DNA of 64,000 nucleotides from a virus (IMGVR_UViG_3300046010_012285:6598-70597); one strand, 5' to 3'. Numbered from the stretch's first letter, positions 18,809 through 29,076 are shown. Made by a program: numbers and translations. Notes: generated by a model not told the origin, from the sequence alone.

Positions 18809-19171
18809 ATGAAATCAATAGTTGATCATGCTAATACATCAGAGCAAGAAGTCTGTGGATTTATATTAGTTGATGAAGGCAAATTAAAATCGGAACCCGC
18901 TCAGAACATTGCATTTATCAAAGATAATATATTTGAAATTCATCCATTAGAAATTTTAAAAAAAATAAAAAGCGGGAAATTAGCGGCGATATATCACACC
19001 CATCCAGTTTCTGGAGAAGCTGAATCAATGTTTGACAAATTTAACTGCGAAAATTGCTGCATCCCGTTTGTTATTTATAGTAAACAAAATCAAAAGTTTA
19101 ATTTAATTCTGCCTAAAACAGTTCATGTAAATAAAGAATATGTAACTATATTAAAAAATAACTATGACTAG
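18809..19171 (+). CDS. tail assembly protein K-like, JAB/MPN domain only
   Basis: EVCGFI and IYHTHP...S..D; no NlpC/P60 domain; start set at MKSIVD. Confidence 0.8.
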   Translation: MKSIVDHANTSEQEVCGFILVDEGKLKSEPAQNIAFIKDNIFEIHPLEILKKIKSGKLAAIYHTHPVSGEAESMFDKFNCENCCIPFVIYSKQNQKFNLILPKTVHVNKEYVTILKNNYD

Positions 19172-26200: not shown

Positions 26201-29076
26201 ATTATACGGCTCCTATTTTAAGACAATGCGATATCGAAGCAGGCAATAAAAATCTAGGATTAACAACACAAAATTCTTCAGAGGTTGCTGGAATTTCTCT
26301 AGGAATGATTGTAGAGGGCGCTGGAATACCAAAAGATTCTATTGTAACAAATATAGGAACGAGCCCAGTAACTGTCTCTATAAGCAACGCTCCAACTGCA
26401 ACAGCGAATAACGTAACCGTAAGTTTTTACTCTACTGCTTCTAAGTGGAGAATAGGAAATAACGAAGGTTATTCTACTGTCGGCTTTCCCAAAGATTTTT
26501 ATGGAAATAGTAAAATTTATACAAATCAAACTTTAACAGCCGCTCACATATCTGGAGCATTTAATTCAATTGGAATTGATGTGTATATTGGAGATGGCTC
26601 ACTTGGTCAAACAGATATAGCCAATTTACCAGAATCTAGTGGTTTAGGATATAGTGGACTAGTTTATGGAACTGGTTTTCCAAAAGGATTTTATGAAGCA
26701 GTAATTGATACTAGCCCGAAAGATTTAGAAAAAATCCAATATGGAACCTTATATGTTTTAAGCGGCTCGGGCGTAGAGCCAGAGCTTTATAAAACAATAG
26801 CTATAAAAGAAGAAGAAGCTAATTTGTATTCTGTTGCAGCTTTAAAATATCTGCCAAATAAGGAAGATTTTATTGAAAAAGATATTTTAAATACATCGCC
26901 ATCGATTTACGTGCAGTCTCCCTATGACATCGTAATAAAGCCGAGCGGGGTAACTATTCTGTCTACTGGCCTCGCATACAGCGGAGCGGTTCCAACTGGT
27001 TTAAATATTTCTTGGTCTGCAAGTGCAAGTCCAATTGCAGGATATAAAGTTTATGTTTCAAGGCCAGATTACTCAACCCCAGCTGAAGGCGATTCTATAT
27101 CTGAGCCTTATACAACCGCTTCAAATGTAACCTCATTGGCTATTCCAATCAAGCAAATTTGGGGCCAATACGACATAAGTGTCTACGCACAAGGAACCTT
27201 GTATAAATTTTTATCAGATGCTCCTGGTCAAACTGGAGTAATGGTTTTGCCCGCCGCAACTCTTAGCGGATTAGGCGCGGGAGGATTTTTCGCAATAACT
27301 TCAACAATTCCAACAGGTTTTACAATTAATACTGCCGACACTAATAGTTTAACATATGGAGTGTATGATGTTCCTAGCGTCGGCGTTGTCGGCATAGGTA
27401 ATGGAAATTTTACTTCAAAAAATTTAACTTTCAGATGGAAATATATCGATCCAACTGGAGGAGTTATTGATTCAGTCGAAAGAATGTTACAAAATCCATT
27501 TGTTGATCTGCCTCCTAAAATATCAGTCCAAGTTTTAGATGAGGCGTCTCAACCTCTCACAGAACTGATACAGTCTTACGACAGATTTTCTTATACAATT
27601 ACTGAAGAACAAAATAAACGGCTTACTAGTAGAGAGGCCGTTGATTGGAAAAATGTAGAGCCATCAAGAAACTTGGGTCTCAGAGTAGTTGTAACCGATA
27701 ACACTTTAAAAACTAAAACTGGAGTTTTTATGGCTTATAATGTTAAGCCATCTTACTCTAGAATAGATGTTATTGATTCTTATCAAGATTCTCCTTATTT
27801 CATATTATCTGGATATTATGGTAATAAATATGGAACTGGTCTCGCTTTTTGGGGTAGCGGAGTTGACGGAATCTTGGGTTCTGGGCTAAGAAATTATGAA
27901 AATGGAGCTTTATTAAGAAGCGAAGATAATGATCGAGAAATTTTATTTCAAGATATTTCTGGAGCATTTAAACACGCTACGTACAAAAATGGAGCAACCT
28001 TTAAAACTGGAATTAATATTACATACAGAGGCGGTGGAGAAAATGATTATAGAGCCTATGTTTATTCTTATTCTGACTTAAACGAGCACTACATAAAATA
28101 TGTAGATAAAGCTATACCAATAGAAGTTTGGGGTTCTGGACACTATGAAGAATATGGATCAAATGAAGGAAGAGAAATTCCTAAAACAATAGGAAACCCT
28201 ATTGGTTTCGCAGATTTAAGCGCTATAACCGATTCTTCAAAAACTGGATTTTCGGGCGTTACCTTTACTGTTTTGACAGAAGAAGTTTCAAAGGGAGAAT
28301 TAATATTTAATTGCTACTCTTCTTTCTCAAATAAAGATGTGTGGTCTATTGATATATACACTGGATTATCAGGAGCTTTTGAGCCTGATACTGCAAATAA
28401 TACAAATCTATACAGATATCATAGCCTATATAAAACTAGATCATATCTCAATGAAATTAGAATTTCAAATGATCTTCAGACAGGTATTTATTATTATTTT
28501 AGATTTGTTCCTTGGGATGATTTTGGTCCGGGGCAAATGTCTGATGTGGTAAGTGGATATTTAGAGCATCAACCAATTGAAAGACCCCAATTACCAGTTT
28601 CAGTAACTACATTAAATGGAGGGAGAAACGAAGACGCTGAATTTGAACCTACCACTGCTAGTTTGACAAGAGGCCATAAGTATCAAATTCTTGATCTTGG
28701 CAGCACAAAAAACTGGACAGATATAGGCTGCGATACAACACCAGCCGTAGGAATCCAATTTATTTATAATGGAGCAGCCGTTACTGGTACAGGCGGTAAA
28801 GTAAAAAGAGTTGAAATACAAATTCCCTTGGGAGAAGAGGATTTAAACTCAACTATTATTGCTGATACAGCAACCGATTCAACCTACAGATTACCAGCGG
28901 ACGTTATACAAGGCTCAACCGCCACAATTATCAATAGAGGAGATAAAGATATATATGTTGAAGATGCTGACGGTCAGCAAATTTCAGTAATCCGCCCCGG
29001 TGAAAGAAGCGATATCATCAGGGCGGATGATCAGTGGTATGATCCTAGAGGTGCTGCACTTTATCTTGAAAGATAA
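23227..29076 (+). CDS. tail tip / host specificity protein J, main part (vWA-like insert, FN3, C-terminal fibre domains)
   Basis: YPLTAHVGLKFDA, VKVPSNY, WDGTFKIAWTDNPAW, EPRYTCN, GCTSRSEARRIG, LQPGD. Confidence 0.92.
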   Translation: MSDENEDDKLAYGEGESDPVLQAIIAANKEEIVLPPAIDGKDRYVTITKTSTETTSPLIKRTVGVDTIYEIIDRNFSYPLTAHVGLKFDARTFANIPDREYDVKMKKVKVPSNYFPLGGNGLDRRYVYSNPNYPANPTTLDVIFMIDQNMNFAMRSLIKRNLQQFLSKLISGYTNVRASVWQTQSGTNTIVNPSTEETINNFTYFDSDLFFELEVPDSTGANQTNLYKKLIDALATTSQISPAIDPAETSIANFFLRKSQFSITDEVGSKSEDYTLEKVWKNTVRKIIYFSGSTPEVMSASTYQVLLNHARENCIQFYYLYADAQFSGTRTLRELSDDSGGGSFNMQHDSDIKLQQFCDNNFYDSNKIYYGDWDGTFKIAWTDNPAWVLYDILTDTNYGLGNYIDIYSIDKWTLYDIARYCDAVDDNGKFAGVPDGKGGLEPRYTCNIIFYNKDEAFKVVQEMAAIFKGIIYWNTEGFSFFADRPKDPIMYFGNANVKDGVFSYSEVAKNKRYTSVEVVYNDRFDNFKAKIELIEDQDGIRKYGLNPFRIMAAGCTSRSEARRIGRYVLCGSMFESDTVSFTAGLEAVYLQPGDIFAISDEVRNVGRTFGRVLEINNNEIKIDGEFVNGLDSGIYLHIPSGSYSISDLNNFTGSDGNFTGKLGQIRARRQNQARKFNIANVQDEDDSYGATITVTGDFLAVSAKTDIYPVVGRISGGGVITGETVLTGINYIFPNQTVIEGNPKWDSVSFEDISGVFSSEDIDITFSGSAGSGQIVDWVQNWTADIEFASSSNSSLKINNSLVGVSSSNEIRMFRLSSAGQVEASGTLSNLNEFWTSSVHTDADAGDALIVYTKGNQISNTFSPNSIWSTGAAATEIYQIGDDISASSSSFGYAAAFIKGGYRIVERASKGLSESGKIKFTYRDLLAYSKLRPFYTIVQADVGNRQPSVFDEWQASRYYKAGNKIKVTTNGVSVPYVCVRTHEQSSTGFAADYTAPILRQCDIEAGNKNLGLTTQNSSEVAGISLGMIVEGAGIPKDSIVTNIGTSPVTVSISNAPTATANNVTVSFYSTASKWRIGNNEGYSTVGFPKDFYGNSKIYTNQTLTAAHISGAFNSIGIDVYIGDGSLGQTDIANLPESSGLGYSGLVYGTGFPKGFYEAVIDTSPKDLEKIQYGTLYVLSGSGVEPELYKTIAIKEEEANLYSVAALKYLPNKEDFIEKDILNTSPSIYVQSPYDIVIKPSGVTILSTGLAYSGAVPTGLNISWSASASPIAGYKVYVSRPDYSTPAEGDSISEPYTTASNVTSLAIPIKQIWGQYDISVYAQGTLYKFLSDAPGQTGVMVLPAATLSGLGAGGFFAITSTIPTGFTINTADTNSLTYGVYDVPSVGVVGIGNGNFTSKNLTFRWKYIDPTGGVIDSVERMLQNPFVDLPPKISVQVLDEASQPLTELIQSYDRFSYTITEEQNKRLTSREAVDWKNVEPSRNLGLRVVVTDNTLKTKTGVFMAYNVKPSYSRIDVIDSYQDSPYFILSGYYGNKYGTGLAFWGSGVDGILGSGLRNYENGALLRSEDNDREILFQDISGAFKHATYKNGATFKTGINITYRGGGENDYRAYVYSYSDLNEHYIKYVDKAIPIEVWGSGHYEEYGSNEGREIPKTIGNPIGFADLSAITDSSKTGFSGVTFTVLTEEVSKGELIFNCYSSFSNKDVWSIDIYTGLSGAFEPDTANNTNLYRYHSLYKTRSYLNEIRISNDLQTGIYYYFRFVPWDDFGPGQMSDVVSGYLEHQPIERPQLPVSVTTLNGGRNEDAEFEPTTASLTRGHKYQILDLGSTKNWTDIGCDTTPAVGIQFIYNGAAVTGTGGKVKRVEIQIPLGEEDLNSTIIADTATDSTYRLPADVIQGSTATIINRGDKDIYVEDADGQQISVIRPGERSDIIRADDQWYDPRGAALYLER

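Follow-up and report, generated by a model that had tools for sequence, protein, structure and literature searches.

Why do the tail-tip proteins of a large uncultured phage carry Ser or Thr in front of so many of their glycines, and could these dipeptides be the sites at which the phage glycosylates its own virion? The question is raised by a viral stretch of 64,000 nucleotides (IMGVR_UViG_3300046010_012285:6598-70597; hereafter "the window", whose coordinates are used below), for which an earlier note had described Ser/Thr-Gly enrichment in the variable parts of the tail proteins and had proposed a phage-encoded O-glycosylation system. The window is part of a large uncultured siphovirus with a lambda-like tail tip. 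It has no close cultured relative (a megablast search of 20 kb against cultured phages gave 0 matches, and its DnaE is <30% identical to any), its relatives were found on contigs of about 134 kb, and outside the tail-tip operon it holds genes for replication and nucleotide functions as well as numerous sugar genes. We confirm that the excess of these dipeptides in the add-on parts of the tail-tip proteins, the central tail fiber J and the tail assembly protein gpI, is real, strong, and specific to this lineage, and we favor a structural reading of it over glycosylation. Throughout, [ST]G stands for a Ser-Gly or Thr-Gly dipeptide, [ND]G for Asn-Gly or Asp-Gly, and ratios are observed over expected numbers. 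The open reading frames (ORFs) and domains on which the argument turns are the following:

17317-29076, plus strand: lambda-like tail-tip operon with gpL, gpK, gpI, an ORF for the J N-terminus, a 183-aa ORF, and the main J piece
17317-18807, plus strand: gpL with a PA14-containing extension (Pfam Phage_tail_L, E=4.7e-55)
18740-19171 as listed, plus strand: gpK (JAB), upstream of gpI
19164-21731, plus strand: gpI tail assembly protein (PHROG 32 'tail assembly protein' at aa 1-186; weak PA14 match)
19722-21728, plus strand: gpI extension of 669 aa (aa 187-855), beyond the PHROG 32 part
21731-22651, plus strand: separate ORF with the N-terminal part of J (PHROG 1727/31 matches to the J N-terminus)
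22659-23210, plus strand: 183-aa ORF between the two J pieces, no family match
23227-29076, plus strand: central tail fiber J, C-terminal piece of the split J, 1949 aa (Pfam Phage-tail_3, PF13550, at aa 455-607, E=4.7e-19; PHROG 31 'central tail fiber J', E=6.6e-114)
24247-25119, plus strand: conserved J hub core, aa 341-631 (0 [ST]G, 26 Gly, 7 [ND]G)
25120-29073, plus strand: lineage-specific distal J, aa 632-1949 (45 [ST]G)
26944-27756, plus strand: three tandem FN3-like domains, J aa about 1240-1510 (9 [ST]G sites)
6789-7052, plus strand: conserved 87-aa ORF, no family match (6/11 Gly preceded by Ser/Thr)

Judged by its Phage-tail_3 hub and the L-K-I-J operon context, J belongs to the lambda-type tail-tip proteins. 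It has the hub core, the L-K-I-J order, post-hub tandem FN3 domains, and a P/G-S-G turn in common with lambda-type gpJ proteins of known structure (8IYK, 8K35; also T5 pb4, 7ZHJ, and T1, 9L9P). Unlike lambda gpJ, it is split over three ORFs, its distal part of about 1300 aa is almost unique to this family (just 3 strong relatives among 1.84 billion representative proteins searched), and its preferred residues before Gly are Ser and Thr (1.75-2.78).

Ser-Gly and Thr-Gly are in excess in distal J and the gpI extension

J contains 51 [ST]G dipeptides where 29.1 are expected, close to the hand count of about 50 in the earlier note, and both Ser-Gly (29 versus 16.0; ratio 1.82) and Thr-Gly (22 versus 13.1; ratio 1.67) contribute. 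The excess persists after correction for composition: in 50,000 shuffles of the whole protein it corresponds to z=4.7 (p=4e-5), and it keeps z=4.9-5.1 when shuffling is confined to blocks of 20 or 40 aa, so that neither local composition nor co-localized Ser/Thr/Gly-rich regions are its cause. The bias is directional, since Gly followed by Ser or Thr, G[ST], shows no enrichment (26 observed, ratio 0.9; p<=1e-4 for the asymmetry), and neither Asn-Gly (0.86) nor Asp-Gly (0.85) is enriched over the whole of J. It also lies at the level of the protein rather than the DNA, because it holds for Ser/Thr codons with any third base; non-Ser/Thr codons ending in T before Gly give 0.97.

Within J, the excess belongs to the distal part (45 [ST]G versus 24.3 expected, ratio 1.86), where [ND]G is low (10 versus 15.4, ratio 0.65). 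The hub core, which the earlier note had singled out as free of these dipeptides despite some two dozen glycines, contains none indeed, with 26 Gly and 26 Ser plus Thr; this absence is nonetheless not significant on its own (2.3 expected, p about 0.1) and, as the J proteins compared below show, not distinctive of this phage either. The ORF with the J N-terminus is depleted (1 [ST]G versus 3.8 expected), and the 183-aa ORF behind it shows no significant excess (4 versus 2.0). All 20 [ST]G dipeptides of gpI, mostly Thr-Gly, fall into its extension as previously counted (11.2 expected, ratio 1.79, z about 3, p about 0.004), where [ND]G is likewise enriched (1.74). No such excess is seen in the PA14 extension of gpL (4 versus 4.7, ratio 0.84). 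Outside the tail genes, the 58 other ORFs of the window pooled together give a ratio of 1.05.

The small ORF at 6789-7052 does have 6 of its 11 glycines behind Ser or Thr, as had been noted (p about 0.003), a result that is marginal after about 75 ORFs tested. This ORF is a lone plus-strand gene among minus-strand neighbors and is 67-97% identical in three relatives, with the 97% found in one whose J is just about 54-60% identical.

The excess is specific to one phage family and to certain domains

J proteins of phages without annotated glycosyltransferases lack the excess: the ratio is 0.89 for lambda J and 0.80 for phi1026b J, and the annotations of both phages list no such enzyme. Similarly, the mean over 65 prophage J proteins, all of full length and from named bacteria, is 1.00 (standard deviation 0.19, maximum 1.45) with no G+C trend, and low-GC cases lie at 0.93 (37% GC), 0.65 (41%), and 1.03. 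By contrast, the mean is 1.60 (standard deviation 0.17) for 50 J proteins of the close clade and 1.67 (standard deviation 0.26) for 70 of a sister clade, which is 41-51% identical in the core and agrees in gene order and in its GT9/GT4-like neighbors. Separating hub core and distal J gives these ratios:

Controls: hub core [ST]G 0.67 (63 prophage J); distal J [ST]G 1.15, [ND]G 1.64
Close clade: hub core [ST]G 0.34; distal J [ST]G 1.75, [ND]G 0.94
Sister clade: hub core [ST]G 0.54; distal J [ST]G 2.78, [ND]G 0.51

A core poor in [ST]G is thus a generic trait of J, because it is depleted in every group including the controls. The actual phenomenon is a class switch: in the distal modules confined to this lineage, the residue preferred before Gly has changed from Asn/Asp to Ser/Thr. 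Two turns behind the hub illustrate this: the first is a P-[ST]-G that is common even to lambda (G-S-G) and phi1026b (P-S-G), whereas the next is T-G in this phage family where lambda and phi1026b have D-G.

The sister clade carries the bias into further proteins, with 25 [ST]G versus 9.9 expected in its extended gpL and 29 versus 12.5 in a 611-aa ORF behind J (ORF611), while its K, short gpI, glycosyltransferases, and ThyX show none. In its distal J, the first 177 aa hold 18 sites and have no detectable homology to J of the window, whereas residues 178-402 are homologous (hhalign probability 97%). Because this 18-site segment is not detectably homologous, the common bias is partly unexplained by recognizable descent.

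How far the signature extends over the virion can be judged from contig G006 of a relative, which we analyzed whole; a flanking gene on it is 92% identical to window 63263-63937, and it shows the tail module past the right end of the window:

L113:683-3208: collagen-like fiber of 841 aa, [ST]G excess by construction from (G-[ST]-[ST])n runs
L113:4309-5529: collagen-like fiber of 406 aa, [ST]G excess likewise by construction from (G-[ST]-[ST])n runs
Fiber-like protein of 280 aa: 18 [ST]G versus 8.2 expected, same motif as J
Three ORFs behind the tape measure gene: [ST]G 1.8-1.95
L114:690-9311: tape measure protein of 2873 aa, [ST]G 1.09
Fiber of 630 aa: [ST]G 1.08
L113:9266-12556: RCC1-repeat protein of 1096 aa, [ST]G 0.54; [ND]G 38 versus 19.4 expected

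Since the RCC1-like protein, the 630-aa fiber, and the tape measure protein are without excess, the signature is specific to certain domains rather than virion-wide. Seven IMG/VR relatives searched with the Pfam models Phage_capsid and Terminase_6N gave no matches, so that this comparison rests on the tail and fiber proteins of one relative. The two collagen-like fibers consist of very long proline-free G-X-Y runs made nearly entirely of Ser, Thr, Asn, and Ala (G-T-S, G-S-S, G-A-N); collagen repeats of Ser/Thr that lack proline should form weak triple helices unless stabilized, for example by glycosylation. In this phage family, the tail module with the tape measure and RCC1 genes lies tens of kb from the L-K-I-J operon.

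The sites are conserved and recur in a hydrophobic context

In an alignment of 36 J homologs that are about 50% identical in the distal part, 69% of cells keep [ST]G, whereas [ND]G is kept in 50% and other dipeptides ending in Gly in 48%, and a Ser or Thr that precedes Gly is retained in 74% versus 57% for other Ser/Thr. Where the Gly is kept, the residue before it is Ser in 515 and Thr in 514 of 1143 cells (together 1029, 90%) and Asn or Asp in 37 (3%). By these retention and exchange figures, the hydroxyl is under purifying selection, with Ser as good as Thr. At glycines that are new relative to the query, Ser/Thr stands in front at just 1.12-1.25 times background; the excess is therefore carried by ancestral positions and not regenerated. 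This behavior is the opposite of that of a glycan-shield-like sequon, whose sites change position while the excess arises anew elsewhere.

The residue behind the Gly is hydrophobic at 63% of the [ST]G sites of J versus 37% for other glycines, the pattern phi-[ST]-G-phi occurs 13 times versus 4.5 expected, and spacings of 5-7 residues between sites number 10 versus 3.4 expected (p=0.0014). Longer patterns, namely [ST]-G-x-T, S-[GA]-x-T, G-A-[TS]-G, G-S-P, and D-S-[ADS], show no enrichment past that of [ST]G. AlphaFold2 with a 51-sequence alignment models J 1240-1510 at a predicted local distance difference test (pLDDT) score of 84-95, and the predicted fold consists of three tandem FN3 domains with a seven-stranded beta-sandwich. 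Foldseek matches this model to fibronectin FN3 triplets, lambda J (8iyk_F/8k35_A), T5 (7zhj_b), and T1 (9l9p_S), with a probability of 1.00 for 6xay, 8iyk_F, 7zhj_b, and 9l9p_S. Of the 9 [ST]G sites in the modeled domains, strands hold six, 5 of them among the first four residues and 1 mid-strand; of the others, 1 is at a strand end and 2 are in loops.

A short module is common to gpI (aa about 724-760; 21240-21340) and J (aa about 1813-1856; 28660-28800), with the core Y-[KQ]-I-L-x-L-G-x-T-x-N-W-T-x-I-G, and a search with J also matched the gpI gene of a relative (E=1e-6). The conserved core of this common module argues that modules have been swapped between the tail-tip proteins.

A probable beta-strand-entry motif of tail-tip add-on modules

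Our favored reading, to which we give a probability of roughly 0.58, is that the [ST]G excess is a conserved structural motif of lineage-specific, beta-rich tail-tip add-on modules, namely distal J, the gpI extension, and, for the sister clade, also the gpL extension and the fiber ORF behind J. The statistics, the lineage and domain specificity, the conservation, the sequence context, and the FN3 fold are shown; a conformational role for the dipeptide itself is what we infer. It would sit at the corner or entry of beta-strands in the pattern [ST]-G-hydrophobic-x-hydrophobic, where the Gly may provide the conformation of a tight turn or bulge and the hydroxyl of the Ser/Thr may cap the backbone. 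The recurrence every 5-7 residues would fall into stretches that likely form an intertwined trimeric fiber, and the same dipeptide would open strands of the three FN3 modules at their first residues. In this phage family, [ST]G would then have taken the role that Asn/Asp-Gly turns play in other J proteins.

Three observations weigh against this structural reading. The stretches densest in [ST]G, J 632-780 and 1109-1181, gave no confident model (for J 632-1330, AlphaFold2 given 10 aligned sequences reached a mean pLDDT of 43, unusable for site mapping), although low confidence would be expected of an intertwined trimeric fiber. Asn and Asp are nearly excluded at the sites, though a purely conformational role normally tolerates them. 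Finally, the bias also occurs in segments without detectable mutual homology, such as the first 177 aa of distal J, the gpL extension, and ORF611 of the sister clade, which hints at a pressure acting on the lineage rather than at simple descent.

Possible glycosylation of the virion

The strongest competitor of the structural motif is glycosylation, in which cytoplasmic glycosyltransferases of the phage would O-glycosylate Ser/Thr at exposed [ST]-Gly strand-entry corners of the tail-tip add-on modules, and perhaps the collagen-like fibers, to build a glycan coat. It would account for an excess that is limited to add-on tail-tip domains and missing from conserved cores and from the non-tail proteins of the window, that is present in 120 J proteins of a glycosyltransferase-rich family and absent from lambda, phi1026b, and the 65 prophages, and that reaches proteins without detectable mutual homology. 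It would also fit the free interchange of Ser and Thr with exclusion of Asn/Asp, the (G-[ST]-[ST])n fibers of a close relative, and the synteny of a glycosyltransferase gene pair with the tail-tip operon. The candidate enzymes and related genes of the window are:

51933-52871, minus strand: GT90-like glycosyltransferase candidate (Pfam Glyco_transf_90 E=0.002 with 17.5 bits, below the 24-bit cut-off, over 75/312 residues; no NCBIfam match)
52895-53719, minus strand: RXYLT1_C / exostosin-clan-like candidate glycosyltransferase (no Pfam Exostosin_GT47 match at E<=0.01)
53700-61754, minus strand: rest of the glycan-synthesis island, with GDP-mannose 4,6-dehydratase, two methyltransferases, two GT2, and a HAD plus nucleotidyltransferase fusion (Pfam)
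51933-61754: the whole sugar island of 10 kb, including the GT90-like and RXYLT1-like genes
33725-36803, minus strand: overlapping pair of a 638-aa GT4/GT1-like protein, which has a GT9 N-lobe-like stretch at its end, and a protein of 391 aa with a GT9 C-lobe-like domain
4569-5816: GT2-methyltransferase fusion (Pfam)
37822-38811: kinase-fold gene (atypical kinase)

The GT90-like and exostosin-like enzymes of the earlier note are assigned by likeness, the Pfam match of the first staying below the cut-off and the second having none at E<=0.01. For the GT90-like candidate, all 30 neighbor clusters in the language-model Atlas are GT90 (best score 0.97); the neighbor clusters of the other candidate carry RXYLT1_C on 32-37% of their members and, in one cluster, Exostosin_GT47 on 13%. 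The pair at 33725-36803 matches Pfam Glyco_transf_9 (E=1e-6) and Glycos_transf_1 (E=1.8e-4) and, far below cut-offs, NCBIfam lipopolysaccharide (LPS) heptosyltransferases (GT9/heptosyltransferase E=1e-6 to 2e-6), and it adjoins the tail-tip operon in both clades (L023, L105). Together with the GDP-sugar 4,6-dehydratase (53700-54731) and the HAD phosphatase-nucleotidyltransferase fusion (60390-61754), all on the minus strand, these GT9-like genes may resemble a nucleotide-heptose or 6-deoxy-heptose pathway. Searches of Pfam, NCBIfam, and PDB sequences tie no glycosyltransferase of the window to a known protein O-glycosyltransferase, all specific matches being below curated cut-offs.

The sites themselves also speak against modification. 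They are flanked by hydrophobic residues and lie largely within or at the start of strands and not in flexible Ser/Thr/Pro-rich tails; the near-background frequency of Ser/Thr before new glycines gives no sign of selection regenerating them; and other exposed proteins, such as the PA14 extension of gpL and the RCC1-like and 630-aa fibers of the relative, are free of the bias. The association of family and glycosyltransferases is moreover confounded by phylogeny, and on the control side glycosyltransferase content is known for lambda and phi1026b, from their annotations.

The analogy to proteoglycan and GT90 acceptors that the earlier note had drawn for these sites does not survive. Proteoglycan Ser-Gly acceptors have acidic flanks and often read S-G-x-G, the Ser modified by GT90/POGLUT enzymes sits in C-x-S-x-[PA]-C, and exostosins elongate glycans but are not known to start them on Ser-Gly. 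The likeness here amounts to a Ser followed by Gly plus a GT90-like gene in the same genome, whereas flanks, motif, and use of Thr all differ. Asp/Glu within 4 residues of the J sites are not enriched (0.09 versus 0.12 background), S-G-x-G accounts for just 5/29 Ser-Gly, Thr-Gly is enriched equally, and the GT90/POGLUT acceptor motif of disulfide-bonded EGF-like repeats, C-x-S-x-[PA]-C, has no occurrence in J (10 Cys) or gpI (2 Cys). Likewise, for the exostosin-annotated chlorovirus protein A075L, extension of the capsid N-glycan has been proposed without direct assay (PMC9614988).

Closer precedents, in which the modified residue stands before Gly, come from bacteria. The cytoplasmic enzymes TibC and AAH, with a GT-B catalytic domain like that of the LPS heptosyltransferase WaaC, hyperglycosylate Ser in turns of beta-helix adhesins, and TibC heptosylates Ser313 in N-S-G-G of TibA; a second site mapped in TibA reads T-S-A-A, and modification is confined to Ser and spares Thr (PMC4358343). 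The likeness to these bacterial autotransporter heptosyltransferases lies in the GT9-like pair beside the tail-tip operon. The bacterial enzymes have an N-terminal beta-barrel, a thumb formed by a beta-hairpin, and an iron finger with 4 Cys. The phage pair is known here from weak GT9 matches split over two ORFs, and a PDB sequence search with it gave no match at E<=1 to TibC or any chain. The acceptor of the bacterial enzymes is Ser only, in a beta-helix passenger, whereas phage J has Thr-Gly enriched like Ser-Gly and FN3 domains in its modeled part.

In O-glycosylated collagen-like proteins, the BclA of B. anthracis being another example, the sugar acceptor is the Y-position Thr/Ser of G-X-Y, which always precedes a Gly, and the 841-aa and 406-aa fibers of the relative are similar to them. 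In C. difficile BclA3, SgtA O-GlcNAcylates Thr of the collagen triplet G-P-T (PMC7157674). J and gpI differ in not being collagen-like, the collagen-like genes are found in the relative, beyond the window, and the architecture of SgtA, a GT-A enzyme with TPR repeats, was not seen in the window. Among phages, mycobacteriophages reportedly glycosylate their virions with their own enzymes, and the work of Freeman et al., said to have appeared in Cell Host Microbe in 2023, is said to describe modified capsid and tail-tube subunits with the transferase genes adjoining theirs. The phage studied here resembles them in having its own glycosyltransferases and virion proteins as proposed targets. It differs in that the candidate sites are internal, hydrophobically flanked tail-tip dipeptides and that its proteins have no Ser/Thr-rich terminal tail.

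The excess has thus outlasted both composition correction and the comparison with phages lacking annotated glycosyltransferases, the two in-silico tests on which glycosylation could have fallen, yet the analysis turned up no positive evidence for it. We regard it as a live minority reading, unlikely but well ahead of the explanations that follow.

Less likely explanations: ligand contact, chemical stability, and composition

The dipeptide could also be a ligand-contact motif, for example for the binding of receptor glycans, or a site of another modification such as phosphorylation by the atypical kinase of the phage. The concentration of the motif in receptor-proximal modules, its conserved hydroxyl, and the kinase-fold gene would fit, but nothing ties this kinase to virion proteins, and the sites are spread evenly over 1300 residues and not clustered in one binding domain. 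We consider both variants improbable.

Slightly less probable still is an explanation by chemical stability, according to which Ser/Thr-Gly took over, in those extracellular virion parts that must last long, from Asn-Gly and Asp-Gly, the dipeptides most prone to deamidation and to forming isoaspartate. It draws on the low [ND]G of distal J here and in the sister clade compared with the controls, with [ST]G rising in parallel. However, general avoidance of Asn-Gly is rejected by the [ND]G-rich gpI extension, by the 7 [ND]G kept in the J core, and by the fibers of the relative, where not just the RCC1-like protein but also one collagen-like fiber (33 [ND]G versus 11.1 expected) and small fiber ORFs (2-3.5 times expectation) are rich in [ND]G. 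Since Asn-Gly is not generally avoided in virion proteins, we set this explanation aside.

Chance, amino-acid composition, low G+C, or codon-pair bias can be dismissed almost with certainty, for although low-G+C genomes shift amino-acid usage and no codon pairs occur at the sites as often as TCT-GGA and ACT-GGA, the shuffles reject chance and local compositional heterogeneity (z about 5, whether global or local), the low-GC control J proteins without excess and the other proteins of the window reject low-GC composition, and the excess in every third-base class of Ser/Thr codons rejects a codon-pair or DNA-motif bias.

Other features of the window and its relatives

The family match of gpK begins at residue 24 of the listed ORF 18740-19171, whose TTG start at 18740 overlaps gpL; the true start is probably an ATG near 18809, right behind the gpL stop. 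Genes for a rIIB-like (370 aa) and a rIIA-like (683 aa) protein lie at 7946-11141 on the minus strand (PHROG 609, E=2.6e-62; PHROG 612, E=1.3e-78) and thus occur here in a siphovirus with a lambda-like tail tip. A close relative (L105:1-510, on a 134-kb contig) has genes for homologs of CsgG and CsgF, which are curli secretion proteins, and these genes lie about 10 kb upstream of the tail-tip operon.

Biological meaning

If the dipeptides were acceptors after all, virion glycosylation would gain a new, minimal kind of acceptor context beyond the mycobacteriophages, in a family of large uncultured aquatic siphoviruses. Phage-made glycan coats would then extend to the lambda-like tail tips of abundant aquatic phages, with a bearing on host recognition, adsorption, and recognition of the particle. 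If the motif is structural, as we favor, it would be a clean case of turn chemistry that has changed across a lineage, with Ser/Thr-Gly in place of Asn/Asp-Gly in receptor-facing fiber modules, and it would help to recognize and model such modules in uncultured phages.

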